A stretch of DNA of 64,000 nt. Origin: a virus (Duplodnaviria > Heunggongvirae > Uroviricota > Caudoviricetes). Where the stretch lies: the IMG/VR virus record IMGVR_UViG_3300028454_001165, positions 1-64,000 of that record; one strand, 5' to 3'. A model generated the notes under the pieces. It was not told where the DNA came from and did not search any database. It worked only from the letters and a program-made list of their open reading frames with translations. Positions 36,620-56,161 of this stretch are shown here, in pieces. The stretch's first letter is position 1; every line of letters starts with the position of its first letter. Position numbers and translations under genes: made by a program.

Positions 36620-36663
36620 GAGAACATCCAAAATTACTGATTTTTCAAAAGGAGTTTAGAACT

Positions 36664-36912: not shown

Positions 36913-36937
36913 GCGTCCCCTCTTTCTTTTTTTTTTT
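36895..36937 (+). terminator. terminator hairpin GACGC-tgaataa-GCGTC + T-run (duplicated at 37443-37479)
   Basis: Stop codon TAA sits in the loop. T10 run follows. Confidence 0.5.
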
Positions 36938-36959
36938 GTGTGAGGATTGATATTTTTTG

Positions 36960-37175: not shown

Positions 37176-37235
37176 TGATATTTACATGATTATATCATAG
37201 ACACGGAATAAATGCAAGGACAGCGCGAAAAAAAC

Positions 37236-37460: not shown

Positions 37461-37645
37461 GCGTCCCCTCTTTCTTTTTGCGGCGGGTGGGATTGATATT
37501 TCCGGGAATCGGGGGGGGGACGCGCAGATCGCATGGACTGTAATGAGAGAAGAACGAATATGCGCGTTCTGTTTCTCTTGCGTTTGATCCGCAAAAAAAA
37601 AGAGCCCGCGTTTCGGCACAGGCCCTTTTGTCCGCTTGCGCGGTA

Positions 37646-39848: not shown

Positions 39849-42668
39849 ATGGATACGAAAAACGACGCGATCTACATCGATGAGGAAACCGGCGAGGTCT
39901 TGGATGACATGGATATTCTCGAGCACTACGGGATGCCCCGGCGGTCCGGGAGGTACCCGTGGGGTTCCGGGGACAATCCTTACCAGCGGACGGGGGATTT
40001 CATTTCCCGCGTGAACAAGATGAAGGCCGACGGCATGTCGGAGGGGGAGATCGCCCGCGAGCTTGAGATTGTGAACTACCGCGGCGAACCGTCCCCATCC
40101 CGGCTCAGAACGCAGCTCTCCGTCGCCAAGAATTACCGCCGCTCGCTTCTTGTAGAGCAGGCGAAGGACATGAAGGCGAAGGGTCTCGGAGCTACGGAGA
40201 TCGGCGAGAAGATGGGGCTGAACGAGTCTACGGTCCGCTCCCTTCTCAATACGAAGGCCGAAGCCCGGATGCTCGCGGCGTCCAACACGGCGAAATACCT
40301 CAAAGAGGAGATCGACAAGAACGGCATGATCGACGTTGGTTCCAGCGTGGAGCGAAAGCTCGGCGTGACGCGGACGACGCTCGACAACGCGCTGATGATC
40401 CTCGAAATGGAGGGATATCCGACTTACGGAGGACGGGTCCCTCAGGTGACGAACAAGGGGCAGATGACGACGCTCAAGGTGGTCTGCCCGCCGGGCGCTG
40501 AGAAAAAAGATATTTACGATTATGCGAAGATCCACCAGCTCGGAGACAGGATCTCGTCCGACGGAGGCGAGACCTTCGATCCGGTCTGGGTCTATCCGAA
40601 GTCGCTGGATTCGAAGCGGGTGCAGATCCGTTACGCGGAAGAAGGCGGCAAGGACAAGGACGGTGTGGTTGAGATCCGGCCGGGTGTGGAAGACGTTTCC
40701 CTCGGCGGCTCCTCTTACGCGCAGGTCAGGGTTCTGGTGGACGGGACGCATTACATCAAGGGCATGGCGGTTTACGGGGATCCGGCCGACTTCCCGGAGG
40801 GGGTCGACATGATCTTCAACACGAACAAGCACGTCGGGACGCCGATGCTGTCGGATGATCCGAACGCGAAGTGCGTGCTCAAGCCCATCGATAAGGCGAA
40901 TCCGACGAACCCCTTCGGGTCGCTGATCAAGGACGGCATCGTCGATCCTGACGACCCTTCGAAGAAGGAGGGCGGACAGCGGTACTACTACGACGAGAAC
41001 GGCGAGAAGCAGCTCTCCGTCATCAACAAGCGGGCCGACGCCGGGGATTGGAACGAATGGAGCCACGATCTCCCCTCGCAGTTCCTTTCGAAGCAGAACA
41101 ACAAGCTCGTGAAGCAGCAGCTCGATCTTGCGAAGATCGACAAGCAGAGCGAATACGAGGAGATCTGCGCATTGACGAATCCGACGGTGAAGAAGCATCT
41201 CCTTCTGAATTTCGCGAACGACTGTGATTCGGCGGCGGTGCATCTCAAGGCGGCCGCCCTTCCGAGGCAGCGGTATCAGGTGATCCTTCCCCTGACGACG
41301 CTCGGGGACGACGAGGTCTATGCTCCGAACTACAAGCCTGGGGAGAAGGTCGCGCTGATCCGGTATCCGCACGGGGGGACGTTCGAGATCCCGATCCTGA
41401 AGGTGAACAATAAGAATGCGGAGGGGAGGCGGGTGATCGGGCCCAATCCGCCGGATGCGGTCGGCATCAACGCGAAGGTCGCGGAGCGGCTCTCCGGGGC
41501 GGATTTCGACGGGGACACGGTCATGGTGATCCCGCTCTCCGGCAAGGCGAATATCACCTCTACGCCGACGCTTCCGGGGCTCGAAGGCTTCGATCCGAAG
41601 GAGCAGTACGGCGGGAAACCGGCAGGGACCTTCAAGCAGATGACGAAGCCCGGCACGCAGATGGAGATGGGGAAGGTTTCAAATCTCATCACCGACATGA
41701 CGATCGGGGGGGCCGGTCCGGAAGAGCTGGCAAAGGCGGTTCGCCACTCCATGGTGGTCATCGACGCATACAAGCACAAGCTGGATTACAAGCAGTCCGA
41801 AATCGACAACGATATCCCCGCCCTCAAACGCAGATGGCAGGGGCATACGACGGAGGACGGGCGGTATTCCACGGGGGCCGCCACGATCATTTCGCAGGCG
41901 AAGGGGCAGGCGAGCGTTCCGAAATACCGGGGGGTCCAGAAGATCGATCCCGAGACGGGCAAGCTCTACTGGGACAGCCGGAAGACGCCCGAGACCTATG
42001 TGGACAAGAACGGTAAGACGCAGACGCGAATGGTCCGCACCACGAAAATGGCGGCCACGGACGACGCGATGAAGCTGGTTTCGGAAGGCAGGACGCAGGT
42101 CGAGCTGCTGTACGCGGATTACGCGAACACGATGAAGTCTCTGGCGAACGACGCGCGAAAAGAATACGTTTCCGCAGGAAGGATCGAGCGCAGTTCCGAA
42201 GCCGCGCAGAAATATGCGGCCGAAGTGGCAAATCTTGAAGCGCAGCTGAACGTCGCAAAGCTCAACGAGCCGCGCGAACGTCAGGCGCAGCTGAACGCCA
42301 ACGCGAACATCAAGCTCTGGCTGGAGAAGAATCCCGACGCGACGAACGCCGAGATCAAGAAGCAGTCTCAGCGGGAACTCTCGAACGAGCGCGCAAAGCT
42401 CGGCGCGAAGAGAAGTCCGGTGAAGATCAGCCCCGAACAATGGGAGGCGATTCAGGCCGGAGCGGTTTCGGAAAACGTGCTGACGAACATCCTCAAGTAC
42501 ACGGACATTGATGTCGTCCGCGGCTACGCGACGCCTCGCGCTTCCAAAGAGCTGAGCGCGGTGAAGCAGGCGAGGATCCACGCGCTGCAGAACTCCGGCT
42601 ACACGAATCAGGACATCGCAGACGCGCTCGGCGTTTCGGTTTCGACTGTGCTGAACTATCTTGACTGA
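39849..42668 (+). CDS. large multi-HTH protein (940 aa)
   Basis: AAAGAAAGGCAG RBS. Three HTH-like segments (GMSEGEIARELEI; GLGATEIGEKMGLNESTVRSLLN; C-terminal GYTNQDIADALGVSVSTVLNYLD). N-terminal HYGMPRRSGRYPWGSGDNPYQ resembles the N-termini of the 45556 and 50539 products. Confidence 0.6.
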   Translation: MDTKNDAIYIDEETGEVLDDMDILEHYGMPRRSGRYPWGSGDNPYQRTGDFISRVNKMKADGMSEGEIARELEIVNYRGEPSPSRLRTQLSVAKNYRRSLLVEQAKDMKAKGLGATEIGEKMGLNESTVRSLLNTKAEARMLAASNTAKYLKEEIDKNGMIDVGSSVERKLGVTRTTLDNALMILEMEGYPTYGGRVPQVTNKGQMTTLKVVCPPGAEKKDIYDYAKIHQLGDRISSDGGETFDPVWVYPKSLDSKRVQIRYAEEGGKDKDGVVEIRPGVEDVSLGGSSYAQVRVLVDGTHYIKGMAVYGDPADFPEGVDMIFNTNKHVGTPMLSDDPNAKCVLKPIDKANPTNPFGSLIKDGIVDPDDPSKKEGGQRYYYDENGEKQLSVINKRADAGDWNEWSHDLPSQFLSKQNNKLVKQQLDLAKIDKQSEYEEICALTNPTVKKHLLLNFANDCDSAAVHLKAAALPRQRYQVILPLTTLGDDEVYAPNYKPGEKVALIRYPHGGTFEIPILKVNNKNAEGRRVIGPNPPDAVGINAKVAERLSGADFDGDTVMVIPLSGKANITSTPTLPGLEGFDPKEQYGGKPAGTFKQMTKPGTQMEMGKVSNLITDMTIGGAGPEELAKAVRHSMVVIDAYKHKLDYKQSEIDNDIPALKRRWQGHTTEDGRYSTGAATIISQAKGQASVPKYRGVQKIDPETGKLYWDSRKTPETYVDKNGKTQTRMVRTTKMAATDDAMKLVSEGRTQVELLYADYANTMKSLANDARKEYVSAGRIERSSEAAQKYAAEVANLEAQLNVAKLNEPRERQAQLNANANIKLWLEKNPDATNAEIKKQSQRELSNERAKLGAKRSPVKISPEQWEAIQAGAVSENVLTNILKYTDIDVVRGYATPRASKELSAVKQARIHALQNSGYTNQDIADALGVSVSTVLNYLD

Positions 42669-42682
42669 AAGGAGAAAACGTC

Positions 42683-43213
42683 ATGAAGAATTCTGAGAAC
42701 ACAGTTGACGAGATCCTTGCCGAAAAGGCGGAAGAGCGCGCGCAGACCGAGCCGATCGCGGAGTCGGCGGAAGAAAGCGGCGCGATTGCCGACGAGAGTT
42801 TCGGAAACGAAAACAGCGGCGAAAAAGCAGAGGAAAATCTGAGCGCAGAATCTGCCGAAAATTTGGACGACGAGCGGAAAGAAAGCGCCGATCAAGCTGT
42901 TCACGCCGACAAAGGCGAGTATTTTGGCGGAAATTATGAGGCGATGCTGACGACGGTTGACAATCCTTTTGATCCGTTCGACAAATTTGACGATTGGTTT
43001 CGCTTTGACGAGCAGCACGGCTACCACAGCTGCGCTTATCTTGGCAGAATCACGGAAATCAGCGACGAGATGAGCGACGAAGAAGCGCAGAAAGAGATCG
43101 AGCGAGCGATCGACGAGATTCTCAAATACGACGTCTTCAACGTATACCGGAAGGTGCGGCGGCCTGTGAGAGTTTCGGAAGATTCCGCGGAAACGCTGGA
43201 GATTTCTGACTGA
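42683..43213 (+). CDS. hypothetical protein with poly-acidic N-terminal half (176 aa)
   Basis: GGAGAAAACGTC RBS. Conserved-looking C-terminal DPFDKFDDWFRFDEQHGYHS. Confidence 0.5.
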   Translation: MKNSENTVDEILAEKAEERAQTEPIAESAEESGAIADESFGNENSGEKAEENLSAESAENLDDERKESADQAVHADKGEYFGGNYEAMLTTVDNPFDPFDKFDDWFRFDEQHGYHSCAYLGRITEISDEMSDEEAQKEIERAIDEILKYDVFNVYRKVRRPVRVSEDSAETLEISD

Positions 43214-43397
43214 AATCGAGTCGTCGCCCTGCTGGAACTCGCAAGAGTTTCGTGAATTTGAAACCCCTCCTCTGAAATCTGCTGTCAGACACCCGGGGGA
43301 GGGGTCGAAAAATCTGCACCCCCTCTGAAATCGCGTTGGCCTTTGAAAAATCTCCGGGGGAGTTATTTGAGAAAAGTCGTTCGTCTCTGATATTCAG

Positions 43398-43525
43398 CGG
43401 TGCTTATACAGGCTCACAAGGAGATGCTCTGGCAGGCACATATGCCAGCTTCCTTTTCCTGTTTCTCCTTTCGGGAAGTGATATGAAGCAGTTTATTCTT
43501 GTCTTTGTGAGCCTGTATAAGCACC
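43398..43525 (+). repeat. perfect 21-bp inverted repeat (GGTGCTTATACAGGCTCACAA / TTGTGAGCCTGTATAAGCACC) separated by 86 nt
   Basis: Arms at 43398-43418 and 43505-43525. Sits in the non-coding 43215-43597 region with CTGAAATC / GAAAAATCT direct repeats. Confidence 0.6.
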
Positions 43526-43597
43526 GTAAAACTGATAGAAAGATATTTGAATTGGACATGAAAATCTATGAACTTTGATGAAAGGAAGGAGAAAAGT

Positions 43598-43948
43598 ATG
43601 CCGAAAAGTAAACAAAAGCCGGTGGAAACCCCTTCTGAAGAGTTCGTTCCTGAGCTTGATCCCGAGGCCAGAGAGGCACAGATGATCAATCTCGCCGTCA
43701 GACAGGCAGAAAAACAACTCAGGGAGGGAACAGCACCGGCACAAATCGTTACACATTATCTCAAACTGGCGACGGTCAGAGAGCGGAAGGAATTGGAGAT
43801 CCTTGAGCAGCAGGCAAAGCTGATAGCCGCAAAGACGGAAGCACTCGAGTCTGCGAAACGGATCGAGGAGCTTTACGCTCAGGCGATCGATGCAATGAAA
43901 CTATATAACGGACAGGGGATTGATGAGGACGATGAGGACGTATACTGA
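43598..43948 (+). CDS. hypothetical protein (116 aa); position compatible with a small terminase or other DNA-packaging accessory
   Basis: GGAAGGAGAAAAGT RBS. No recognisable motif. First gene after the inverted-repeat region. Confidence 0.45.
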   Translation: MPKSKQKPVETPSEEFVPELDPEAREAQMINLAVRQAEKQLREGTAPAQIVTHYLKLATVRERKELEILEQQAKLIAAKTEALESAKRIEELYAQAIDAMKLYNGQGIDEDDEDVY

Positions 43949-44348
43949 GCTAATCAAGCTGCCGACATTCGGGGAACGGTTTGAATATTTGAAGCTGGAC
44001 GGGGCCGTTGCTCAGGAGACTTTCGGCGGAGCCAGATGGCTGAATCAGGTATTATATCAGACGCCGGAATGGAAAGTGGCAAGAAGGAAAGCGATCGTCC
44101 GGGACATGGGCAACGATCTTGGCTGTGAGGGATGGCCGATATTGGGGCGGGTTTATGTGCATCATATGAACCCAATCACAAAGGAAGATATTCTTAAACG
44201 GTCGGAGGCGCTGTTTGATCCGGAGAATCTGATCTGCTGTTCAGACATGACGCACAAGGCCATTACATACGGAGACTTCAATCTTCTTCCGAAAGAATTC
44301 GAAGAAAGAAAAGCGGGGGACACCTGTCCATGGAAAAAATTGAAATAG
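43923..44348 (+). CDS. HNH endonuclease (141 aa)
   Basis: YVHHMNPITKEDI...ENLICCSDMTHKAIT fits the HNH motif (HH..N...NL...H). Confidence 0.6.
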   Translation: MRTMRTYTELIKLPTFGERFEYLKLDGAVAQETFGGARWLNQVLYQTPEWKVARRKAIVRDMGNDLGCEGWPILGRVYVHHMNPITKEDILKRSEALFDPENLICCSDMTHKAITYGDFNLLPKEFEERKAGDTCPWKKLK

Positions 44349-44359
44349 GGAGCGTAATT

Positions 44360-44602
44360 ATGTGCGAAGACGATCTCAGTTCCGTCTACCGAAAGCGTAA
44401 TCGATACGAAAAAGGAAGGGTCAGCAAGACACAGAACGTGTATTACGGCCCTTCCTATGATTCAGATGTGCTCTGCATTGTGACGTCGGATGAGGAGTTC
44501 GAGATCGATCACAATGAGTCCAGAGGCGAATTCTATAAGATTTATACCGCAAGCGGAGTCGAAGGCTTCGTGCGCAGAAAAAACACAAGGACGGAGGGAT
44601 AA
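44360..44602 (+). CDS. hypothetical protein (80 aa)
   Basis: AATAGGGAGCG upstream. Confidence 0.4.
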   Translation: MCEDDLSSVYRKRNRYEKGRVSKTQNVYYGPSYDSDVLCIVTSDEEFEIDHNESRGEFYKIYTASGVEGFVRRKNTRTEG

Positions 44603-44605
44603 ACA

Positions 44606-44971
44606 ATGGATGAGAATATCCTTACCTCTGTTAAGTTGGCTCTTGGTATCGCTGAGGATTATACGTACTTTGATCAGCAGCTGATCCTTTACATCAACAC
44701 CGCTCTGGCTGTGCTGACGCAGACCGGAGTGGGTGAAGCGGGATTCACGATTACCGGCAGCGCCGAAAAATGGTCCGATTTTCTCGGTGAGAAGATGGCT
44801 GCCCTTGAATACAGCAAGAGCTATGTGATCATGCGCGTCCGACTGATGTTTGACCCTCCGCAGAGTTCGGCGGCAATCGAAGCTTTGAAGGCAATGATCG
44901 CCGAGTATGAATGGCGGGGATATGTGGAGAGCGATGAGGGTGTGGCCGAGGCATTAGTCGGAGGAAACTGA
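44606..44971 (+). CDS. gp6-like head-tail connector / DNA-packaging protein family (121 aa)
   Basis: VKLALGIAEDYTYFDQQLILYINTALAVLTQTGVGE resembles the Phage_connect_1 signature (L...LRID.D.DD.LI..LI.AA..YI...TG). Confidence 0.4.
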   Translation: MDENILTSVKLALGIAEDYTYFDQQLILYINTALAVLTQTGVGEAGFTITGSAEKWSDFLGEKMAALEYSKSYVIMRVRLMFDPPQSSAAIEALKAMIAEYEWRGYVESDEGVAEALVGGN

Positions 44972-44972
44972 A

Positions 44973-45407
44973 TCACTTGTTGGCTACGCCAAATATGACA
45001 CGGAGCAATATTATGAAGCAAGTACAGGGAATAATTATAAGAAATAATATTCCAAGTCCATATAAGGGATTATCATTATCATAGGAGTTCTTAGCGATCG
45101 TATAACAGATAATACCTGCGATTATAGACAAGAGCATAAGCGTGCCAAGAGAAATGCCCGCAATCAGTTTAACTTTTCTTTCCCTTGATTCACGTTCCTT
45201 CGCTTCTTTTATTTCGAGAATACGGAGTTTATACTGCAGCTCTGCTTCTCTAATTTGCCCTTCATCTATTGTGCGAATAATGTGCTCGTTATTGTTGTCG
45301 ATTACTATTTTCATCCCGCAGTATGTACAGAAGCATTGGCGGACATCGTCCTTTACTTCAAGATTTGCCCCGCAATGCGGGCATTCTAATTTTATGAGAT
45401 TGATCAT
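44973..45407 (-). CDS. - strand moron: zinc-ribbon + TM protein (144 aa), AT-rich
   Basis: CPHCG...CTYCG ribbon. Two C-terminal TM helices. Roughly 35-40% GC patch 44970-45500. Confidence 0.5.
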   Translation of the reverse strand: MINLIKLECPHCGANLEVKDDVRQCFCTYCGMKIVIDNNNEHIIRTIDEGQIREAELQYKLRILEIKEAKERESRERKVKLIAGISLGTLMLLSIIAGIICYTIAKNSYDNDNPLYGLGILFLIIIPCTCFIILLRVIFGVANK

Positions 45408-45555
45408 TTTTGGTTACCTTGAAAAGTATGTTGAGATTTTTGTTGTTTGAAGATCTTAATTGGTCAGAAGCCTCTTATGTTTACTGCATATACTTAGCAA
45501 ATGAATTGTGTTTATGCTTACAGGTATTTTGTATCCTCATGAAAGGAGGGTTTTT

Positions 45556-46596
45556 ATGGATAAACAATTCGATACTTTGGAGCACCATGGCATCCTCGGG
45601 ATGAAGTGGGGCGTGAGAAGATACCAGAATGAGGACGGATCTCTTACTGAAGCCGGTCGAAAGCGGTATGGTGTCGAGGAAAGTTCTTCAGAATCGGAGA
45701 CGAGGTCTTCACAGGACACCTCGCAGGGGCAGACTTGGAGTCCGGCATCGACTGTGAAGTCAGTCTCCGAGATGTCTGACGAAGAACTGCGGAACGCTCT
45801 GAATCGGATGAATATGGAACGACAGTACAATGAGATGACACGTTCCAGAGAAAATCAAAATACGACTCAGAATAATGCAACGGTTATCGAACGGCCGAAA
45901 ACGACCGGAGAGATGACGAATGCTGAATTGCAGAGTTATATTAACAGACTCGAGTTGGAAAAGCGGTATGCTACTTTGACAGCACCTCCTCCCAAACAGG
46001 TCACAAAAGGCGAACAATTTGTCAAGGATGTCCTGAAGCCTGCGTTCAACGAAGTTGCTAAGCTCTATGTTGTCAATACCTTGAAGAACTTTGTCGGGCT
46101 GAACAACAGCGACAATGGAGGAAAGGACAAGGGTAACGATAATTCCGATAGCGGAAAGAAGAAAAAAACAGGTAATCAGGATAGTCAGTATCAATCCATC
46201 AAGAAGGAACTTGACTCTCTCAAGGCCATGATTTCCTCTTCGAACCAGACCAAGAAAGAGGCAACTGGACAGAACGCGTCCAAATCTGGAGACAGATCCG
46301 ACAATAAGACAGAGTCAGCGGCCAGATCAGAGACCAGAAATGAGAATCGTTCGGAAAGCAGGACCGCAAGCAATTCCTCTCATCGCGCCGATATTCTTCG
46401 CGCAGCCAGAGAGAATGTCAGAACGGCAAAGGAACAGGTAAACCAGAAGTCGAGTAACGATCGGTGGAGCAGTATTCTTAATTCATTAAATGCGCAGAAC
46501 CAGTTTTTGGATAATTCAATACAGAGTCAAAGGGCTCAGATGCAACGTCAAAGAGCTCAGAATTACTTAGACAGATACATTAGTAATCTTCCATAA
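45556..46596 (+). CDS. low-complexity S/T/N/Q/R-rich protein with N-terminal HHGILGMKWGVRRYQN motif (346 aa)
   Basis: GAAAGGAGGG RBS. N-terminal 40 aa nearly identical to the 50539 product. Internal repeated ELxxxxNRxxxExxY blocks. Confidence 0.6.
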   Translation: MDKQFDTLEHHGILGMKWGVRRYQNEDGSLTEAGRKRYGVEESSSESETRSSQDTSQGQTWSPASTVKSVSEMSDEELRNALNRMNMERQYNEMTRSRENQNTTQNNATVIERPKTTGEMTNAELQSYINRLELEKRYATLTAPPPKQVTKGEQFVKDVLKPAFNEVAKLYVVNTLKNFVGLNNSDNGGKDKGNDNSDSGKKKKTGNQDSQYQSIKKELDSLKAMISSSNQTKKEATGQNASKSGDRSDNKTESAARSETRNENRSESRTASNSSHRADILRAARENVRTAKEQVNQKSSNDRWSSILNSLNAQNQFLDNSIQSQRAQMQRQRAQNYLDRYISNLP

Positions 46597-46671
46597 AGAT
46601 CATTTCCCATATAGCATGGGAATGAGGCAGAATGTTTGATGTCGGAAAGCTCATCATTATATGAGATCAGA

Positions 46672-47538
46672 TCAATGCACGCATTTCTGGCATGGGGTTT
46701 TGCCTCTGCGCAAAGCTTCTGATAAGCTTACCGGGTATGAGTTGACACCGCCGCAATCCGGATCGATGTGGTATCTGACTCCGGATGGTGTTATATAGAC
46801 GGTTTCTTCGTCCGGTTCTTCTTCAAGTGTATATATAGTCAGATCTTCCTGCCCTGTGGAGAGTGAGCGGTAATTGGACATATTACCGACAGATTCTCCA
46901 ATACTTTCCATGGCGTAGTAATAGTCATCATAAGTAAAAACTTGCTTGAAGATCAGCCAATCAGCGAGCGGAGCAAGCGGATATTCCTTTTGCGGAGCTT
47001 GAATTGTAGCAAGGGAGACCGTTACAATATCGGCTCGCAGGAAGTTATCAAGATCAACGTTCCAGCGGATCAGGTTTAGTTGCCGGGCAAGATCGTAGGG
47101 GTTGCTCCATGTGAAATCTCCACGGGAGTCATCATAGCCGAGGGCACGAAGGGCAAACGTTAGATACATGGCGGAGGATACAGTGCCGGTACCGAACTCG
47201 GTATCCGAGATGCCGTTGGCAAGGCCCTCGTTATATGCGAATCCTATATAGTCGTCTGCCCAGTTCGGAACGTCAGTGAATGGATGCCAGCGATGGACAG
47301 CCAGAGCTTCTTCTTCATAACCGATCAGACGGATCAGCATGACGATTGCTTCTACTCTGGTTGCGGGTCTCTCCAAATCAAAGTTGTTATCGGAGACTCC
47401 TTTGAATAAACCGAGTGATTTCAAAGCCTGTGCCTGTGATTCTTCCACACCTATGTATCTTGCATTTACTGCTGTCGGCAGGAAACAAAAGAGCATCGCG
47501 ATCGCAAGCAAGAGGGAGATAATTTGTGAAGATTTCAT
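46672..47538 (-). CDS. - strand moron: secreted SLH-domain protein with C-terminal Cys4 (288 aa)
   Basis: Signal peptide (LLLAIAMLFCFLPTAVNA). Two SLH-like repeats (FKGVSDNNFDLERPATRVEAIVMLIRLIGY; GFAYNEGLANGISDTEFGTGT..RALGY). C-terminal CGG...CQKC. Confidence 0.55.
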   Translation of the reverse strand: MKSSQIISLLLAIAMLFCFLPTAVNARYIGVEESQAQALKSLGLFKGVSDNNFDLERPATRVEAIVMLIRLIGYEEEALAVHRWHPFTDVPNWADDYIGFAYNEGLANGISDTEFGTGTVSSAMYLTFALRALGYDDSRGDFTWSNPYDLARQLNLIRWNVDLDNFLRADIVTVSLATIQAPQKEYPLAPLADWLIFKQVFTYDDYYYAMESIGESVGNMSNYRSLSTGQEDLTIYTLEEEPDEETVYITPSGVRYHIDPDCGGVNSYPVSLSEALRRGKTPCQKCVH

Positions 47539-47606
47539 TGAAAAACAGCCTCGCTTATCATTAAGTGATGTGTCTCAAGCAATTTAACGATTTATTATAC
47601 CACAAA

Positions 47607-47620
47607 ATTTTCGTTAACCC
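47607..47620 (+). repeat. C14 homopolymer tract 70 nt upstream of the terminase gene
   Basis: cgttaa-CCCCCCCCCCCCCC-gaaataattt. Confidence 0.6.
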
Positions 47621-47689
47621 CCCCCCCCCCGAAATAATTTACAAAATATTTACAAAGCGGGCTTTTAGGGGCGAAAGGAGATTATCAAA

Positions 47690-49438
47690 ATGGCGCTCTC
47701 GAATACGGCTGTGCCGAGGTACTACGGCGTGTTTCGGGACGCCGTGATTCGCGGGGAGATCCCGGTATGCAGAGAGATTTCCCTTCAGATGAACCGGATC
47801 GACTATCTGATCCGAAGCCCGAACTACTACTATGATCCCGCTCCGGTTGAAGGGTGGATCCGATTCTGCGAGAATGAGCTGACCCTGACGGACGGGTCCG
47901 ATCTCGCTCTTCTGCCGTCGTTCAAGCTTTGGGGCGAGGATCTGCTCGGGTGGTACTACTTCGAGGAACGGAGCGTTTATGAGCCCGGAACAAACGGACG
48001 CGGAGGACGGTATGTCCGCAAGAGGATCAAGAAACGACTGTGCCACAAGCAGTATCTGATCGTCGGGCGCGGCGCGGCAAAGTCCGTTTATGATTCCTCC
48101 GTACAGGCGTTTTTCCTGAATGCGGACTCCTCTACAACCCAGCAGATCACGACGGCTCCGACTATGAAGCAGGCGGACGAGGTAATGAGCCCGATCCGAA
48201 CGGCTATCACACGATCCCGCGGCCCTCTGTTCCGGTTTCTGACGGAAGGATCCATCCAGAACACGACCGGGTCGAAGGCAAAGAGGGTTAAACTGGCTCC
48301 GACAAAGAAGGGGATCGAGAACTTTCTGACGGGATCATTGCTTGAAATCCGTCCGATGAATACGGACAAGCTGCAAGGACTTCGATGCAAGGTGGCCACG
48401 ATCGACGAATGGCTGTCCGGGGATGTAAATGAGGACGTTGTGGGGCCGATCGAGCAGGGGGCTTCCAAGCTGGACGATTATGTGATCATCGCCACAAGTT
48501 CTGAGGGAACCGTTCGGAACGGAACCGGCGACTCCATCAAAATGGAGTTGATAAAGATCCTCAAAGGCGAATACATCAATCCGCACACTTCGATCTGGTG
48601 GTACAAACTGGACAGCTTGGAGGAAGTCGGCAAGCCGAACATGTGGCTGAAATGCAATCCGAACATCGGCAAGACTGTCTCTTATGAGACATATCAGCTT
48701 GACGTGGAACGGGCCGAGAAGGTTCCGTCCGCCAAAAACGATATTCTGGCAAAGCGGTTCGGGCTGGCTATGGAAGGCTACACATACTACTTCACCTATG
48801 AGGAAACCAAAGTGCATAGGCCGCGGGAGTTCTGGTCGATGCCGTGTTCTCTTGGAGCGGACTTGTCTTTGGGGGACGACTTCTGCGCTTTTACGTTCCT
48901 GTTTCCTCTGCCAGACGGATGCTTCGGCGTAAAGACGCGGGCTTACATCACATCGCTGACGATGAGCAAATTACAGGCGTCGCTCCGACAGAAGTACGAC
49001 GAATTCATGGCGGAAGGAAGTCTAATCGTCATGGAGGGAACGGTTCTCGATATGATCGACGTCTACGACGATCTGGACCGGCATATCGCGGAGAAAGAAT
49101 ACGACGTGCGGTGTTTCGGCTACGACCCGTATAACGCGCGGGAATTCGTGGAGCGGTGGACAACGGAAAACGGACCGTTCGGCGTGGAGAAGGTCATACA
49201 GGGCGCGAAGACGGAGAGCGTTCCGCTCGGCGAGCTGAAGAAGCTGGCGGGGGAGAGGATGCTGATCTTCGACGAGCAGATGATGACCTTTGCGATGGGG
49301 AACTGCATTGCGATCGAGGACACGAACGGAAACCGCAAGCTGATGAAGAAGCGGTACGACCAGAAGATCGACTCGGTCGCGGCCATGATGGACGCTTACG
49401 TGGCATACAAGGCCAACCGGGACGCGTTCGAGGGATAA
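47690..49438 (+). CDS. terminase large subunit (582 aa)
   Basis: Walker A LIVGRGAAKS. Walker B-like ATIDEW. C-terminal nuclease motif CSLGADLSLGDDFCAFTFLF. Confidence 0.85.
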   Translation: MALSNTAVPRYYGVFRDAVIRGEIPVCREISLQMNRIDYLIRSPNYYYDPAPVEGWIRFCENELTLTDGSDLALLPSFKLWGEDLLGWYYFEERSVYEPGTNGRGGRYVRKRIKKRLCHKQYLIVGRGAAKSVYDSSVQAFFLNADSSTTQQITTAPTMKQADEVMSPIRTAITRSRGPLFRFLTEGSIQNTTGSKAKRVKLAPTKKGIENFLTGSLLEIRPMNTDKLQGLRCKVATIDEWLSGDVNEDVVGPIEQGASKLDDYVIIATSSEGTVRNGTGDSIKMELIKILKGEYINPHTSIWWYKLDSLEEVGKPNMWLKCNPNIGKTVSYETYQLDVERAEKVPSAKNDILAKRFGLAMEGYTYYFTYEETKVHRPREFWSMPCSLGADLSLGDDFCAFTFLFPLPDGCFGVKTRAYITSLTMSKLQASLRQKYDEFMAEGSLIVMEGTVLDMIDVYDDLDRHIAEKEYDVRCFGYDPYNAREFVERWTTENGPFGVEKVIQGAKTESVPLGELKKLAGERMLIFDEQMMTFAMGNCIAIEDTNGNRKLMKKRYDQKIDSVAAMMDAYVAYKANRDAFEG

Positions 49439-49460
49439 AACAGAAAGGAGGCGACGGCCG

Positions 49461-50519
49461 TTGTCTGTGATAGACATAGAGACAAAGAAAAGATGCGTAG
49501 ACGCCTATAATGAAGGGCGGCCTCCGAAGGAAATCTATCTTCAGCTGTTTCACGACGATTACCCGACCGCGAGCTATGAGAGTTTCAAGCGGAGACTGAG
49601 AAGCTGGCGAAAGCAGGACTACCCTGATCGGAAGACGCTGGACAGCGGGACCTATGAGGGATTTACTGCGCACAATGCCACGGTACAGGTGAACAGCAAG
49701 GGAGAAATCACGCAGGCATGGATTAAACAGACGCTCGACGACGGACAATGGGATGCGCTTCTGGATGCGATCCGGGAAAATACGGAGCCTGTCCGCATCG
49801 AACCGGTAACCGGAGACGGAATCGGCATGCTGGAGATCCCGCTTTTCGATATGCATCTCCCGCTTTCCGACCACACGAAGAGCATTGGACAACTGCTCGA
49901 TATTATCGGGCGGCAGAAATGGGAAGAGATCAATGTCGTTATCGGACAGGATCTGTTTCACAATGACGATATGCGCGGCAGAACCGCTTCCGGCAGAGTC
50001 ATTGAGAAGGCGGACATACCGGAGGCATGGGAAATGGCCCGGACAATCTGGTACAGTGTGATCGACGCTTCTCTCCGGCAGGCAGAACGCGTGAATCTGA
50101 TCTATTCGATCGGGAATCATGACGAGAGTCTCGCTTGGTGTTTTGTTCAGATGCTGAAGGATCACTACCCGCAAGTCCATGTGGACGACCGTTTCAAGCA
50201 GAGGAAGTGCATCTACTGGAACGGATGCTTTATCGGACTGACGCACGGACATTATGCGAGGAGCAAGGTTCACGACCTGCGCGGGCAGTTTACGATCGAG
50301 TTCCCGGAGGAATTCTCCTATGCCATCGTCCGTGAGATCCATGCCGGGCATCTGCACCGCGAAGGAGAAGGCGATCTCTACGGTGTGATGATCCGACGGT
50401 TATTCCGAAACGGTGAGACTGACCGATGGTCCGAGGACGAAGGATATGTCGGTGCGCATAAGCGGTTTATGGTATTCGAATGGATGCCGGGCTGCCTGAA
50501 AGCGGTTTACTATATTTGA
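49461..50519 (+). CDS. HTH-domain + calcineurin-like metallophosphoesterase (352 aa, TTG start)
   Basis: AAAGGAGG 9 nt upstream of TTG. N-terminal transposase/terminase-small-like HTH (KKRCVDAYNEGRPPKEIYLQL...SWRK). Phosphoesterase motifs DMH, GNHDE, GH, GHLH. Confidence 0.6.
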   Translation: MSVIDIETKKRCVDAYNEGRPPKEIYLQLFHDDYPTASYESFKRRLRSWRKQDYPDRKTLDSGTYEGFTAHNATVQVNSKGEITQAWIKQTLDDGQWDALLDAIRENTEPVRIEPVTGDGIGMLEIPLFDMHLPLSDHTKSIGQLLDIIGRQKWEEINVVIGQDLFHNDDMRGRTASGRVIEKADIPEAWEMARTIWYSVIDASLRQAERVNLIYSIGNHDESLAWCFVQMLKDHYPQVHVDDRFKQRKCIYWNGCFIGLTHGHYARSKVHDLRGQFTIEFPEEFSYAIVREIHAGHLHREGEGDLYGVMIRRLFRNGETDRWSEDEGYVGAHKRFMVFEWMPGCLKAVYYI

Positions 50520-50538
50520 AGAGAGGAGACGTAACAGA

Positions 50539-51039
50539 ATGGAGCAAAATGTTTCAAACAATGCGAACGAATCTCTTCAGCATCACGGCATCCTCGGGAT
50601 GAAATGGGGCATTCGGCGATACCAGAATCCCGATGGGACTCTTACGGAAGCCGGGCGGAAAAGGCTGGATCAGAAAGACACGAAGTGGGCGCACAAACGC
50701 GAGGAGAAGATCTACAATCAGACTTACTCAAAGTCGCGCCGTGAGGTGAACAAGTTCGTCAAGGAACTCAACCGGCAGATAAGCCCGACGAATGCGAACG
50801 GACGGCTCTCGGCGACCTACGTCAATGCATACAACCAGAAGCTGGCCGAGATCATGAACAAGAACGTGAAGGAGATCCACGCCCCGTCCGGCAAAGTGGT
50901 CAAGTGGGTGGCAAAACGCGGAGAGGTCGGCGTTCACATGGCTCTGGCCGACGCAGGGTATGATCTGAGCCAGCTCAAACGCGGCGTGTACGGTTCCGGG
51001 CGGATCGCTTACCGGAAAACTTCGGTTGATGTCGGCTGA
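50539..51039 (+). CDS. protein with N-terminal HHGILGMKWGIRRYQN motif (166 aa)
   Basis: GAGAGGAGACG RBS. N-terminus paralogous to the 45556 product. Confidence 0.55.
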   Translation: MEQNVSNNANESLQHHGILGMKWGIRRYQNPDGTLTEAGRKRLDQKDTKWAHKREEKIYNQTYSKSRREVNKFVKELNRQISPTNANGRLSATYVNAYNQKLAEIMNKNVKEIHAPSGKVVKWVAKRGEVGVHMALADAGYDLSQLKRGVYGSGRIAYRKTSVDVG

Positions 51040-51059: not shown

Positions 51060-53405
51060 ATGCAATATACTTTTACCGACAGGCTGAAACATGCCTGGAA
51101 CGTATTTAAGAGCCGCGATCCGACTCAGTACGCAAGGTCTTATGTCGGCGGATTCAGCGAGTACAATCCCGATTTCAACCGGCGGTACTACCGGAATTCC
51201 GGCGACCGGTCCATTGTGACGGCCATCAAAAACCGGATCGCCGTCGACGCCGCGCAGGTGGATATTCAGCATGTGAAGCTGGACGACAACGACCGCTATC
51301 TCGAGACGCTGGACTCCGGCCTGAACCGGTGTCTATCCGTAGAAGCGAACATTGACCAGACGGGCAGAGCGTTCCGTCTGGATATTTTTTTCTCGCTTCT
51401 GGACGAGGGGGTCATCGCGCTTGTTCCGATCGACACGACATTCGACCCGGAGGTGACCGGCACGTATCAGATCAACTCCATGCGGGTCGGACGGATCACG
51501 CAATGGCATCCGAAGCACGTGCATATCAGCGTTTACAACGAAGATACCGGGCGGCGGGAAGAAATGGTTGTTCCGAAGAAAGTCGTGGCAATCGTGGAGA
51601 ATCCGTTTTACGCGGTGATGAACGAGCACAATTCCACCTTTCAGCGGCTGATCCATAAGCTCGCGCTTTTGGACGCGGTGGATGAGCAGTCTTCCTCCGG
51701 CAAGCTGGATCTTATCATACAGCTTCCCTATGTGGTCAAGACGCCGCAGAGAAAGGCGCTTGCGCAGGAGAGGCGGGAGGAGATCGAGCAGCAGTTATCC
51801 GGTTCCAAGTACGGTATTGCATGGACGGACGGTACGGAGAAGATCCAGCAGCTGAACAGGCCGATCGAGAACAATCTTCTCAGTCAGATCCAGTATCTGA
51901 CGGACCTTGCTTATTCCCAGCTCGGTATCACCGCGGATATCCTGAACGGAACGGCGGACGAGAAGACGATGCTGAACTACAACAACCGGATCATCGAGCC
52001 CCTTGTGGCGGCGGTCGCGGACAGCATCAAGCGGACTTTCCTGACAAAGACTGCCATCACGCAGCATCAATCCATCGAGTATTACCGCGATCCGTTCGCT
52101 CTGGTACCGGTGGAGAAGATCGCCGAGATCGCGGACAAATTCGGACGGAACGAGATCACGACGTCCAACGAAATCCGTCAGGCAATCGGCATGAAGCCGT
52201 CGACCGATCCGAACGCAGATATTCTCCGGAACAAGAACCTCTATGACACAACCGGTCAGGCTCCGGGGACAAATCCCGCAGGCGGGGAAGAAGAGGCCGA
52301 GGAAGAGGACGACGGGCCGATGACGGAGGAGGATTACCTTCGGGCGGTATCCGATCTCGACGATATGGACGAGCAGCTCGACAATCTCGAAGCCTCTTTG
52401 CGGCACTTTGACGATCCGCAGGAGGCGAAAGAGTATCGGAGATGGTACTACGAGAACGTCGAGAAGGAAAACCGGAAGCTCGGCTACGGCAATGCCTCGA
52501 CCAAGGGGCTGAACGAGGAAGGCCGGGCCTATGCGAAGTACATCCGGGAGCTTTTCGGAAACGAGCGCAAGGCCAAGGTTGCCGACTCGAAGGCCAGACA
52601 GGACGCGGGGATCGAATCCAGCAAATCGAGCACGAACGAGGGGATCGAGAAGAGCAAGACCGCGCGGGATACGCTTGTCGGCAACATCAATGCCTCTCGG
52701 GACAGCCGGATCGAATCCGAACGGACGAAGATGAACGCCGGGATCGAAAAGAGCCAGTCCGAACGGGACAGCCGCATCGCTTCTGTCAATGAGGAACGGG
52801 ATAAGAATATCGAGTCTGAGCGCACGCGCACAAAATCTGAAATCGAATCGCACAAGAATTCGATGCAGATGAAGATCGACACGCTGAAAAACTATCTTTC
52901 CGGGCTGAGCAAGGAAGACAAGGCGGCGGTCAAGGAGCGCGTACAGCAGGAAATCTCCGATCTCAGAGAAGACAACAAGCAGAAGCGGACAGAGCTTCAG
53001 GAGGCCTTCAAAGCGACAAGCGCGGAACTGCGCACCGAAGCCAAGACGGAAAACGATGCTGCGAGACAGGGGCACAAGGACACCTCTTCCTCCCTGCGCG
53101 AAGAGTTCAAGACGACAAGCGGCAATCTCCGCACGCAGTCGAAGAACAGCACGACGGCTATCAAGGAGGCGCATCAGTCCAAAGCGGCTTCCCTCAGAGA
53201 GCAGCACAAGCAGACAAGCGCCGGTCTGAGAGAAGAGCACAAGGCAAATACCGCCAAGGCCAAGCAGGAATATGAGGATGCTTACGCCGCAGAGCTTGAA
53301 TACATCAAATCTCTCCCGGAGTATCAAGCCGCGACGAAATCGAAGTCAAGCGGAAGCAAAGCTAAGTCTACTACCGTCGTCTATAAAGGCAAGAAGAATC
53401 TATAA
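51060..53405 (+). CDS. putative portal protein with about 360-aa repetitive C-terminal extension (781 aa)
   Basis: Size and position immediately upstream of the protease-capsid gene. Globular N-terminal 420 aa. C-terminal half made of degenerate IES(E/S)RT(K/R) and LREEHK(x)TS repeats. Confidence 0.55.
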   Translation: MQYTFTDRLKHAWNVFKSRDPTQYARSYVGGFSEYNPDFNRRYYRNSGDRSIVTAIKNRIAVDAAQVDIQHVKLDDNDRYLETLDSGLNRCLSVEANIDQTGRAFRLDIFFSLLDEGVIALVPIDTTFDPEVTGTYQINSMRVGRITQWHPKHVHISVYNEDTGRREEMVVPKKVVAIVENPFYAVMNEHNSTFQRLIHKLALLDAVDEQSSSGKLDLIIQLPYVVKTPQRKALAQERREEIEQQLSGSKYGIAWTDGTEKIQQLNRPIENNLLSQIQYLTDLAYSQLGITADILNGTADEKTMLNYNNRIIEPLVAAVADSIKRTFLTKTAITQHQSIEYYRDPFALVPVEKIAEIADKFGRNEITTSNEIRQAIGMKPSTDPNADILRNKNLYDTTGQAPGTNPAGGEEEAEEEDDGPMTEEDYLRAVSDLDDMDEQLDNLEASLRHFDDPQEAKEYRRWYYENVEKENRKLGYGNASTKGLNEEGRAYAKYIRELFGNERKAKVADSKARQDAGIESSKSSTNEGIEKSKTARDTLVGNINASRDSRIESERTKMNAGIEKSQSERDSRIASVNEERDKNIESERTRTKSEIESHKNSMQMKIDTLKNYLSGLSKEDKAAVKERVQQEISDLREDNKQKRTELQEAFKATSAELRTEAKTENDAARQGHKDTSSSLREEFKTTSGNLRTQSKNSTTAIKEAHQSKAASLREQHKQTSAGLREEHKANTAKAKQEYEDAYAAELEYIKSLPEYQAATKSKSSGSKAKSTTVVYKGKKNL

Positions 53406-53423: not shown

Positions 53424-55424
53424 ATGAAATACGATTTTTGCGGATGGGCCACGCGGAACGACATTCTGTGCACCGACGGCAGGACCATCCGAAAGGATGC
53501 ATTCAAGGACTGTGACGGAAAGACCGTCCCCCTTGTTTGGAATCATCAGCACAACGACCCTGAAAATGTTCTGGGCCACGCGGTCTTGAAGAACATGGAC
53601 GAGGGCGTTTTCGCCTACTGCTCTTTCAACAGTACGAGAAAAGGGCAGAGTGCCAAGCTTGCCGTTGAGCATGGCGATTATGATTCCCTGTCCATTTTCG
53701 CAAACAGGCTCAAGCAGGTCGGCGGTGATGTTCTTCACGGCGAGATCAAAGAGGTATCCCTCGTTCTGGCCGGGGCCAATTCCGGCGCGCATATCGTGGA
53801 TGTGATTCGTCACGGAGAAATCTCCGAGGACGAATTTGTTCTTTATGCGGGTGAGGAGATCAGCTTTGAGCACGCCGACGATGAGCAGAACGACCTTGAA
53901 GCCGCGAAGCCCGACGCGAAGACGGTGAACAAGGAAGAGAAGGAAGAGGCGGGCGATAAGGACAAAAAGAAGACCGTCCGTCAGGTCCTCGATACGTTCA
54001 CCGAGAAGCAGCAGATCGCCCTGTATTCCGTCATCGGAGATATTATCGAAGGCGATGAAGACGCGGAGGACGGGGACGCAGAGGGAAAAGAGGCCTCTCA
54101 CGCCGATTCCAAGAAGGAAGAGAACAGCAAAGAGGACGACGAGACGGTCGGCGACATTCTCGAAACGCTCAATGACGAGCAGAGAGAAGTTGCCATTGCC
54201 CTGATCGCACAGGCGATTAAGGACAAGGAATCCAAGAAAGCGAAGCACTCCGACGAGCCGGAGGAAGGGGACAAGCCCGCATCCGAGCCCGAAGAGGAGA
54301 TCAAACACAATTCTGAAAATACCGAAGGAGGTACTGAAATGCACGACAACATTTTTGAGCGCAACTACGAGAACACCGCCGTTGAGACCGAGGGGGTCCT
54401 TTCCCACTCCGAGCAGGTGAAGATTCTCACCGAGGCAAGAAACGGCAAGGGAAGCCTGCGGGACGTGGTTCTCCAGCACGGAATCACCGATATCAGCAAT
54501 GCATATCCCGACGCAAAGACCGTCGGCGATCAGCCTCAGACCATTACCGGGAATCTCGGCTGGGTCAAGGAGGTTCTGTCCGGGGTACGTCACGCGCCGT
54601 TCGGCCGCATCAAGACGCTCTTTGCCGATATGACTGCCGACGATGCCCGCGCTAAGGGTTATCTGACCAAGGGCACGCAGAAGATCGAGGAAATTCTCAG
54701 GCTCCTGAAGCGCGAAACCTCGCCCGCCAGAATCTACAAGCTCCAGAAGCTTGACAAGGACGATATCGACGACATCACCGACTTCGACATCGTCGCGTGG
54801 CTGAAGAAGGAGATGCAGGTAATGCTCGACGCCGAGGAAGCCCGCGCGATCCTGATCGGCGACGGCCGCGGTATCACCGCAAGCGATAAGATCGACGAGG
54901 AGAAGATCCGTCCGATCTGGACGATGGAGGATCTTTTCGCTATTCAGGCTACTGCCATGGTTGCCTCCAGCGCGACGGACGACGACATCGCGAAGGCCGC
55001 TATCCGTTCCGCCGTGAAGGGGTTCGACGACTATGACGGTTCCGGCAATACGATTTTCTTCGTCGCTTCCGACAGACTTTCCGATATGCTTCTGCTCGAG
55101 GACGACTACGGTCACAGACTCTACAAGACGAAGACTGAGCTCGCGGCCGCTATCGGCGTGGAGAAGGTCGTCGGGGTTCCCGTCATGAAGAACAAGACCC
55201 GCACGGTCACCATCAGCAGTGTGGACCATACCCGCAATCTTGTCGGCATTATTGTCGATATGGCCGATTACACCGTGGGTCAGACCAAGGGCGGTCAGAC
55301 CAGCTTCTTCGACGACTTCGACCTCGACTTCAACAAGATGGAGTATCTGCTTGAGAAGAGAGAGTCCGGCACTCTTGTGAAGCCGAAGTCCGCCATCGTT
55401 CTCGAATACGAGCTGGGAAACTGA
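53424..55424 (+). CDS. fused prohead protease (S78-like) - acidic scaffold-like linker - HK97-fold major capsid protein (666 aa)
   Basis: N-terminal VPLVWNHQHNDPENVLGHA resembles S78 prohead protease (LLWQHD..PIG). Roughly 200-aa D/E/K-rich linker. C-terminal 300 aa with HK97-like blocks (ILIGDGRG..., TKTELAAAIGVEKVVGVPVM). Confidence 0.65.
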   Translation: MKYDFCGWATRNDILCTDGRTIRKDAFKDCDGKTVPLVWNHQHNDPENVLGHAVLKNMDEGVFAYCSFNSTRKGQSAKLAVEHGDYDSLSIFANRLKQVGGDVLHGEIKEVSLVLAGANSGAHIVDVIRHGEISEDEFVLYAGEEISFEHADDEQNDLEAAKPDAKTVNKEEKEEAGDKDKKKTVRQVLDTFTEKQQIALYSVIGDIIEGDEDAEDGDAEGKEASHADSKKEENSKEDDETVGDILETLNDEQREVAIALIAQAIKDKESKKAKHSDEPEEGDKPASEPEEEIKHNSENTEGGTEMHDNIFERNYENTAVETEGVLSHSEQVKILTEARNGKGSLRDVVLQHGITDISNAYPDAKTVGDQPQTITGNLGWVKEVLSGVRHAPFGRIKTLFADMTADDARAKGYLTKGTQKIEEILRLLKRETSPARIYKLQKLDKDDIDDITDFDIVAWLKKEMQVMLDAEEARAILIGDGRGITASDKIDEEKIRPIWTMEDLFAIQATAMVASSATDDDIAKAAIRSAVKGFDDYDGSGNTIFFVASDRLSDMLLLEDDYGHRLYKTKTELAAAIGVEKVVGVPVMKNKTRTVTISSVDHTRNLVGIIVDMADYTVGQTKGGQTSFFDDFDLDFNKMEYLLEKRESGTLVKPKSAIVLEYELGN

Positions 55425-56147: not shown

Positions 56148-56161
56148 GGAGGAAAATCACA

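Follow-up and report, generated by a model that had tools for sequence, protein, structure and literature searches.

Our analyses of a 64,000-nucleotide stretch of the genome of a tailed virus of the class Caudoviricetes (positions 1 to 64,000 of the IMG/VR record IMGVR_UViG_3300028454_001165, hereafter the window) show that two proteins of its head module, P2 and P3, carry the same short N-terminal peptide ahead of unrelated remainders. This peptide, which we call the tag, corresponds to the Pfam family PF23847 (DUF7211), to which Pfam assigns no function, and a related variant of it appears to head the putative YonO-like RNA polymerase encoded upstream of both. The motif is real, strongly selected and already catalogued as a domain of unknown function (DUF), while the systematic tagging of arrays of head-module genes, with a variant on a polymerase, is without description in the papers that we searched. 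The function that we infer for it, on a balance of evidence leaning slightly in its favour, is that of a docking tag for cargo located inside the virion and probably injected, the polymerase included.

The peptide common to P2 and P3 reads L(E/Q)HHGILGMKWG(V/I)RRYQN(E/P)DG(S/T)LTEAGRKR, with 26 of 30 residues identical between P2 L8-R37 and P3 L13-R42. A local alignment of the N-terminal parts of the two proteins scores 154, against 21 ± 4 for shuffled sequences, whereas their remainders score 37 against 35 ± 6, so that the near-identity at the N-terminus and the absence of relation thereafter, both pointed out in a first-pass annotation made from the letters of the window, are borne out. The DNA encoding the tag is 76% identical between the two genes and 13 of the 17 differing codons are synonymous, which implies selection on the tag peptide and no recent DNA copy. 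Both proteins pass the gathering cut-off of the 25-residue PF23847 profile (27 bits), P2 with 36.7 bits and P3 with 33.7 bits, and the profile also picks out their homologues and nearby genes in related loci; besides them and the polymerase variant, no open reading frame (ORF) of the window contains the motif. Each of the two genes is preceded by a good ribosome-binding site. P2 lies upstream of the gene for the terminase large subunit (TerL), with a reverse-strand gene in between, and P3 ends 20 nucleotides (nt) ahead of the portal ATG; the two thus flank the packaging genes, with P3 directly upstream of the portal, as the same annotation had it. Judging from the aligned sequences, the core of the tag may be written (D/E)x(F/Y/I)LxH(Y/H)G(V/I)xGM(K/R)WGxR(R/K), apparently extended in phages of Clostridia to ...RRYQNxDG(S/T)LTxAGxxRY. 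A secretion-like signal, also envisaged at first, finds no support, as the tag region has no hydrophobic core and neither WXG/LXG nor other secretion families occur among the Pfam matches of the scanned proteins. Our literature search retrieved no paper naming DUF7211 or the peptide GMKWG.

By its gene content and sequences, the window belongs to the known supercluster formed by the Faecalibacterium phage FP_oengus, the Lactococcus phage 1706 and the actinophage clusters BI-DJ-AM-AU-CC, a group already recognised as one supercluster spanning Actinobacteria and Firmicutes (bioRxiv 10.1101/842583). Its related records comprise FP_oengus, the 1706-group Lactococcus phages and ~230 actinobacterial phages with hosts in Arthrobacter, Gordonia, Streptomyces, Rhodococcus, Curtobacterium and Microbacterium. 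The window shares with the supercluster the same signature genes in the same order (Cas4-like exonuclease, polymerase bearing helix-turn-helix (HTH) domains, HNH endonuclease, connector, TerL, portal, protease-capsid fusion and duplicated major tail protein). It differs in that the published descriptions searched mention neither the tag, nor the arrays, nor the polymerase tag; likewise, the Arthrobacter, Faecalibacterium and supercluster papers that we searched mention neither virion proteomics nor a tag.

Across this lineage, tagged genes concentrate in a single genomic interval. We surveyed the tag positions in 152 related loci (78 from IMG/VR and 74 from genome contigs) that together contain 442 tagged ORFs, 95% of which lie in or next to the interval delimited by the connector, TerL and portal genes (211 of 222 in IMG/VR, 209 of 220 in genome contigs), with 1-9 per locus and, with one exception, on the packaging strand. 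In the window, the connector gene is the upstream limit of this interval. The arrays comprise five tagged genes in Streptomyces phage Bing and also in Arthrobacter phage CaptnMurica (gp06 and gp08-11 in both), gp12 (with an internal tag) and gp14-16 in Gordonia phage Tanis, eight genes in Rhodococcus phage ReqiPepy6 (gp013, again internal, and gp015-021) and nine in the 113-kb Arthrobacter phage Qui (gp15 and gp18-25). Where at least 6.5 kb of upstream sequence is available, the polymerase accompanies the tagged genes in 14 of 14 IMG/VR loci and 26 of 27 genome contigs, and it is present too in Qui and ReqiPepy6; this co-occurrence is nevertheless uninformative, every tagged phage examined being of the same lineage. 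Two longer genome loci (L173 and L178) lack head markers. As separate observations on position, two tagged ORFs in the tail module of the same-lineage genome-bin contig L173 (6474-8100) lie directly upstream of a tape measure gene encoding 2655 residues, and tagged ORFs are found downstream of the capsid gene in the IMG/VR loci L052 and L072.

The tag itself is nearly unchanged among phages of Clostridia, Lactococcus and Actinobacteria, the polymerases and terminases of which are only ~35-48% identical. At least 14 PHROG families have only the tag in common. It starts at a median of 14 residues past the preceding stop codon (≤50 residues in 214 of 222 ORFs) and occupies either the extreme N-terminus or, in multi-module proteins, the module starts. 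In a full HMMER scan, the tag matched 27,685 clusters (50% identity) when E ≤ 1e-3 was required and 16,223 when the limit was set to 1e-10; each of the best 150 matches contains 2-5 copies, ~110-640 residues apart, with the first copy ≤30 residues from the N-terminus in 145 of them. Such multi-copy proteins may be read as strings of modules in which a tag is joined to a variable part. In 78 loci, the tag is never naturally fused to the portal, to TerL or to the capsid protein. Queried through a word index, the 42-residue tag brought up nothing but tag-sized proteins, of no help for architectures, and thereby exposed stand-alone tag genes of 38-46 codons; in one example (L012-L015, 8001-8126; tag-only proteins P0121-P0240), 41 codons are followed by a 228-nt gap. 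In 20 contigs, a tag-only gene sits between a tagged gene and the portal.

Structural predictions agree on a disordered tag region. In the AlphaFold model of P3, built on a 45-sequence family alignment, the predicted local distance difference test score (pLDDT) is 78, with a confident C-terminal domain and block values of 34-66 in the tag region (residues 1-30). Residues 1-49 of the polymerase, though invariant, are modelled with pLDDT below 50 as an unstructured segment undocked from the body, and the tags of actinophages are followed by Ser/Gly/Asp-rich linkers. A peptide that is left disordered in AlphaFold models, yet is invariant and is followed by flexible or charged linkers, would be what one expects of a short linear motif acquiring its fold on a partner. 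What the first-pass annotation had feared, a motif forming part of an enzymatic domain, is not the case: the peptide is disordered and invariant, and its partners are hypervariable. What follows the tag is mostly basic, with a median isoelectric point (pI) of 9.7 and values above 9 in 161 of 191, and 58 of the 191 contain a hydrophobic segment rich in Ala and Gly, which often lies close to the C-terminus. Recognisable domains are rare among the partners, with a GNAT acetyltransferase in 3 of 82 tagged proteins and an HTH or sigma-like domain in 1 of 82; P0250, a protein of 1334 residues with four tags encoded between TerL and portal, contains a papain-fold glutamine deamidase toxin domain.

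The third protein to which the same motif had been attributed, the 39849 product, matches phrog_4291 over residues 20-938 (E = 0), contains a C-terminal Sigma70_r4_2 HTH (E 1.3e-8) and is 36.6% identical to orf75 of phage 1706 over 1023 columns (E 4e-171), and both proteins display the catalytic DxDGD loop as DFDGD; from these similarities we assign it as a putative YonO-like two-barrel RNA polymerase. Its N-terminus has no match to Pfam DUF7211 at E < 0.1. Nevertheless, the stretch L24-G41 is invariant in 32 homologues, being the best-conserved part of the N-terminal region, and this polymerase-type tag is found in every lineage polymerase examined. When a profile of 202 DUF7211 tags is compared (hhalign) with one of 14 polymerase tags, the match has a local P of 3.5e-7 and a probability of 93%, with significance limited to the first 12 columns, D.L.H(Y/H)G(I/V), after which the second halves diverge (GMKWG.RR in DUF7211, RRSGRYPWGSG in the polymerase). 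Hence, of the relation first proposed for the polymerase N-terminus, the kinship holds as a variant over these columns, and neither the column-by-column consensus nor a DUF7211 match does; the motif is not the same in the three proteins, which have only D.L.HYG(I/M) in common. The polymerase-type tag also stands at the head of two small non-polymerase ORFs in MT835616, and a protein of locus L065 (2661-3929) starts its first module with DUF7211 and its second with the polymerase-type tag, from which the two forms would seem to be used interchangeably. Taken together, these sequences suggest that the polymerase tag is a related but distinct variant of DUF7211. The polymerase gene abuts the late module, which is where a virion protein would be encoded.

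An indication that tagged proteins may be part of the particle comes from the Lactococcus phage 1706 (EU081845), 11 of whose 76 ORFs were labelled ‘structural protein’ by the depositors, the rest being ‘unknown’ or ‘putative ...’. Because three of the 11 labelled ORFs lie outside the structural module, an experimental basis for these labels is suggested. Our scan of the whole 1706 genome found the tag in only two ORFs: orf7, which has two DUF7211 copies and the second short motif described below and lies just upstream of TerL as P2 does, and orf75, the polymerase homologue. Both are labelled ‘structural protein’ in the record, and the chance of finding both among 11 random labels over 76 ORFs is ~2%. 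The ReqiPepy6 record gives its homologues as ‘similar to 1706 gp07 / gp75, structural protein’. The capsid-targeting role initially advanced for the motif is contradicted by none of the tests that we ran and is in line with these labels; the incorporation of clients by virtue of the tag, its binding by a particular head component and the injection of the clients are steps that we infer.

P2 has counterparts in 1706 orf7 (BLASTP E 5e-6, residues 6-95), CHPC971 gp07, Bing gp06, CaptnMurica gp06, Qui gp15 and Tanis gp12, and its slot just upstream of TerL is kept across the lineage. It contains two copies of a second short motif, M(S/T)xxEL(R/Q)xxxNR(L/M)x(L/M)E(K/R)(Q/R)Y, also written M(S/T)D.EL(R/Q)...NR(L/M).(L/M)E(K/R)(Q/R)Y, of which Bing gp06, Qui gp15, Tanis gp12 and 1706 orf7 have one each; 19 of 196 tagged ORFs contain the pattern, for the most part ones located upstream of TerL, versus 2 of 2129 other ORFs. 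P3 consists of the tag and a conserved C-terminal domain of ~110 residues; it has 3664 homologues, those listed being full-length, and its family adjoins the portal in 15 IMG/VR loci. The predicted fold of this domain matched nothing in PDB and BFVD at E ≤ 0.001. Tanis gp12 (L005 5478-7043) and ReqiPepy6 gp013 (L098 4682-6277), the tagged proteins upstream of TerL in these actinophages, begin with an additional domain that is annotated ‘phosphoesterase’ and has two HxT motifs, so that their tag is in mid-protein; judged by eye from the two HxT motifs, this domain may be read as 2H-type. We had considered, by a Rosetta-stone argument, that P3 could be an adaptor for the neighbouring exonuclease-like gene, an idea withdrawn since the phosphoesterase of Tanis gp12 is unrelated to that gene, which among 15 loci accompanies the P3 family just once.

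We can envisage how such a tag would operate. During late gene expression, it would draw client proteins, variable as a set, to a single conserved part of the head under assembly, for which the portal dodecamer, with its twelve sites, or the protease or scaffold part of the protease-capsid fusion would be candidate hubs. The clients would finish inside the virion and probably be ejected with the DNA. In the window these would be P2, P3 and, through its variant tag, the YonO-like polymerase, which, once packaged, would start the transcription of the incoming genome. With their basic character, hydrophobic segments and occasional enzyme or toxin domains, the clients appear to resemble known internal or ejected proteins. 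In a wider version, a universal docking peptide throughout the supercluster would load heads with the polymerase and with a fast-evolving repertoire of effectors, 1-9 in number and basic, membrane-active or enzymatic; once injected, the polymerase would transcribe early genes from a lineage-specific promoter. This is a tentative idea that we would not yet expect to hold.

A candidate for such a promoter exists in the early region of the window. The element CGCG-N7-CAT-N6-TAATGG is present in 19 copies (≤2 mismatches) versus 1.7 ± 1.3 expected, all on the + strand and all within 1672-38373, the early/replication region upstream of the polymerase gene, and it is absent from the late region of the window. 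A ribosome-binding site lies downstream of 14 of the 19 elements, usually within ~50 nt. In FP_oengus, forward copies of CGCGAAAAA-N2-CA-N7-TTATGGA number at least 13 and stand before the early genes (L104 2286-8246), and Qui has 31 forward copies of TCGC-N8-CA-N7-TAATGA versus 0.2 expected (L094+L105, record positions 37648-85873), 26 of them before small early genes at 37.6-48 kb and none in the late arm; in the Lactococcus phages 1706 and CHPC971 the pattern has no match. The 3' part of the element is similar to a sigma-A -10 box in the window and Qui, a likeness less marked in FP_oengus, so that it could be a host promoter that includes a conserved site for a regulator. It is equally a candidate promoter of the lineage's own polymerase, with which an architecture shared across two host phyla would fit just as well. 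Were this right, the early genes would need a pre-made enzyme upon infection, a need that, while unproven, would agree with a packaged polymerase. Within the same region we observe a local duplication of ~630 bp, in which the element is repeated exactly (36595-36640 and 37224-37269; 46 nt, 100% identical), as is a terminator-like GC hairpin with T-run after an acidic C-terminal coding end (36880-36948 and 37425-37496).

Several observations weigh against the docking-tag reading. In 1706, the untagged orf62 and orf71, outside the structural module, share the ‘structural protein’ label, so that either the tag is dispensable for presence in the virion or some of these labels reflect co-purification; moreover, the support from this phage is at record level, with the labels as deposited. 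The tagged protein found lineage-wide in the usual small-terminase slot may be a packaging factor and not cargo. The tag is internal in Tanis gp12 and ReqiPepy6 gp013 and is repeated two to five times in long proteins, and there are stand-alone tag-only genes of 33-74 codons, which are either cargo genes in decay or unattached tag peptides that have a separate role. The AlphaFold model of the polymerase is mediocre (pLDDT 63), and its tag, which differs in the second half and fails the Pfam model, may have a different binding partner. Finally, as the tagged phages all carry the polymerase, the portal and the capsid fusion, co-occurrence cannot identify the hub.

If the tag instead bound the packaging machine (TerL or the portal exterior), its bearers would be accessories to packaging or assembly, for instance a small-terminase equivalent and its paralogues. 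The location of tagged genes on both sides of TerL would suit this, and so would the small-terminase slot, always tagged and endowed with the second conserved motif, the fact that Pfam and NCBIfam recognise no small terminase in the window, and the match of 1 of 82 tagged proteins to the Pfam Phage_terminase small subunit/HTH. We nonetheless regard this explanation as unlikely, for it accounts neither for up to nine different tagged proteins per genome nor for their hypervariable partners, hydrophobic segments and toxin or acetyltransferase domains, nor for a tagged RNA polymerase; 1706 orf7 is, besides, labelled structural, whereas terminase subunits normally leave the finished particle. Binding to a conserved host component, such as a chaperone, a protease adaptor, the RNA polymerase or a membrane insertion factor, would make the clients unpackaged effectors directed at the host. 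An invariant tag across two host phyla is what a universally conserved target would produce, and many clients have membrane segments or enzyme or toxin domains; yet the genes lie inside the late packaging operon and not among the early genes, the motif is so far limited to one phage lineage that shares its structural genes too, the polymerase of the phage itself has a variant of the tag, and 1706 orf7 and orf75 are both labelled structural, all of which renders a host target quite improbable in our view.

The tag might also act as a tether to the RNA polymerase of the phage or to DNA; the small proteins would then be transcription factors and the polymerase N-terminus a competing or autoinhibitory copy. 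The near-constant co-occurrence with the polymerase described above, Qui and ReqiPepy6 included, the basic nature of the clients and one tagged protein with sigma region 3/4-like HTH domains are compatible with this. However, common descent of the lineage (bioRxiv 10.1101/842583) explains the co-occurrence equally well, the tag is undocked from the polymerase body in the AlphaFold model, hydrophobic segments and toxin domains would be odd for transcription factors, and the genes are located in the head module, so that we attach little probability to such a tether. Each of these explanations, packaging accessory, host target and polymerase or DNA tether, fits fewer observations than docking of cargo. 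The shared N-termini could, lastly, be a functionless by-product of duplication or recombination at a common 5' sequence, since tandem arrays, fusions and tag-only remnants attest to rapid gene turnover in the interval. The substitution pattern contradicts this, nucleotide identity being only 76% with mostly synonymous differences, and the peptide is kept between AT-rich phages of Clostridia and GC-rich actinophages while the downstream parts have diverged beyond recognition; we give this account almost no credence. The capsid-cargo reading is plausible, as yet undemonstrated, and testable with cultured phages.

The proposed docking tag shares features with several known systems. As in the internal proteins of T4 (IPI-III, Alt), a short conserved N-terminal peptide is present on otherwise unrelated proteins whose genes form a variable array. 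The T4 signal comprises ~10 residues, is strictly N-terminal, binds the scaffolding core and is cut off by the prohead protease. By contrast, the present tag, without sequence similarity to the T4 signal, measures 16-35 residues, is also found at internal positions and in several copies, and belongs to a siphovirus with a protease-capsid fusion. The strictly N-terminal tag of the initial proposal has accordingly to be given up, as the known Pfam family to which it belongs is internal in fusions and occurs in 2-5 copies in multi-module proteins; being internal and multi-copy, it behaves as a docking peptide rather than as a T4-style cleaved leader. The capsid targeting sequence of T4 is likewise a conserved peptide on highly diverse internal proteins, some of them anti-host enzymes (PMC3012670). 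A second parallel is offered by the MuF proteins, which have variable C-terminal toxin domains, and by SPP1 gp7, which is bound to the portal and present in the capsid (PMC5576092). Their genes lie beside the portal in the packaging module of siphophages of Firmicutes, as P3 does, and the toxin domain of P0250, encoded between TerL and portal, adds to the likeness. MuF differs in being a folded domain of several hundred residues, usually in one gene downstream of the portal, whereas here a disordered peptide is found on 1-9 genes upstream of it; no MuF-like minor head protein exists among the head-gene proteins scanned, with no Pfam match to Phage_Mu_F or Phage_min_cap2 in P2, P3, the portal and the scanned head-gene neighbours.

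For the polymerase, the relevant precedents are the N4 virion RNA polymerase and gp66 of crAss-like phages, which are carried in the particle, injected and transcribe early genes; crAss-like gp66 belongs to the same two-barrel class, resembling RNA-dependent RNA polymerases (RdRP), as YonO. The window is similar to these systems in that the 1706 polymerase homologue is labelled structural and a promoter-like element is confined to the early region, and it differs in that its enzyme, of ~100 kDa and with HTH domains, is known here from genes and belongs to siphophages, temperate ones among them, that infect Gram-positive hosts. The YonO protein of SPbeta itself is reported to be the late-gene polymerase and is not known as a virion protein. 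If the tag is an encapsidation signal, a function would be gained for a very large DUF family (>27,000 clusters at the 50% identity level, plentiful in gut metagenomes), a hidden set of hypervariable injected phage proteins, likely for host takeover and counter-defence, would come into view, and a peptide handle of 20-35 residues would be available to load foreign proteins into phages of Gram-positive bacteria. If the polymerase is packaged, the view of the life cycle of a widespread lineage would change, with a mechanistic tie to crAss-like phages, and it would be the first virion-delivered two-barrel polymerase outside them.

The features of the window are compiled in Table 1. The P3 and polymerase sequences recur, exactly, in a Ruminococcaceae genome bin, where they lie on a contig of 543 kb, from which we conclude that the region is a prophage. 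In the supercluster, the HTH-bearing protein has already been named a putative YonO/RdRP-like RNA polymerase and is the signature gene of the group, and an HHpred link of its FP_oengus homologue to the RdRP family PF05183 has been published (bioRxiv 10.1101/842583).

Table 1. Positions of the genes, tags and short motifs discussed, in nucleotides of the window.
Feature	Position	Strand	Remarks
Promoter-like element CGCG-N7-CAT-N6-TAATGG, example sites	2340, 3696, 4156, 4856, 22337, 23012, 30854, 36595, 37224	+	
Endonuclease	38861	+	start of listed gene order
Cas4-like exonuclease	39196	+	next after endonuclease
Putative YonO-like two-barrel RNA polymerase, 939 residues	39849..42668	+	N-terminal tag, HTH domains near both ends, catalytic DFDGD
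Polymerase-type (type B) tag	39912..39986	+	residues 22-46, DILEHYGMPRRSGRYPWGSGDNPYQ
Two small conserved proteins	between polymerase and HNH endonuclease	+	gene order
HNH endonuclease	43920	+	gene order
Head-tail connector protein	44606..44971	+	Pfam Phage_connect_2, E 2e-31; phrog_4247
P2, DUF7211-tagged, 346 residues, pI 9.4	45556..46596	+	Pfam DUF7211, E 2.6e-9
DUF7211 (type A) tag of P2	45571..45669	+	residues 6-38
Second short motif, P2 copy 1	45772..45828	+	MSDEELRNALNRMNMERQY, residues 73-91
Second short motif, P2 copy 2	45913..45969	+	MTNAELQSYINRLELEKRY, residues 120-138
Terminase large subunit (TerL)	47690..49438	+	Pfam TerL_nuclease, E 3.6e-30; phrog_9, E 1e-101
DNA repair exonuclease-like protein (PHROG annotation)	49461..50519	+	phrog_704, E 4.8e-46; between TerL and P3
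P3, DUF7211-tagged, 166 residues, pI 10.0	50539..51039	+	Pfam DUF7211, E 2.3e-8
DUF7211 (type A) tag of P3	50569..50667	+	residues 11-43
Portal protein, 781 residues, long C-terminal extension	51060..53405	+	phrog_12, E 7e-37
Prohead protease / major capsid protein fusion	53424..55424	+	phrog_3270, E 2.5e-193; phrog_7080
Tail terminator	between capsid fusion and major tail proteins	+	gene order
Two adjacent paralogous major tail protein genes	56144-56857 and 56880-57695	+	both phrog_2645
Apparent tape measure gene	past major tail proteins, continues beyond window edge	+	gene order

The genes for TerL, the exonuclease-like protein, P3 and the portal form one tight operon with spacings of 19-22 nt. 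P2 is flanked by the reverse-strand genes 44973-45407 and 46672-47538, which break the co-directional late operon and encode, one, a zinc-ribbon protein with a hydrophobic segment and, the other, an SLH-domain protein; they look like accessory insertions. The two major tail protein genes correspond to the repeat families D8/D11, with 71-77% DNA identity, a duplicated major tail protein being a known feature of the supercluster according to the same preprint. The portal protein is much longer than the ~410-450 residues of its relatives, with ~380 extra residues at its C-terminus. This extra part is repetitive, helical and rich in E/K/S/R, has a weak match to Apolipoprotein, and is expected to face the capsid interior in the particle.

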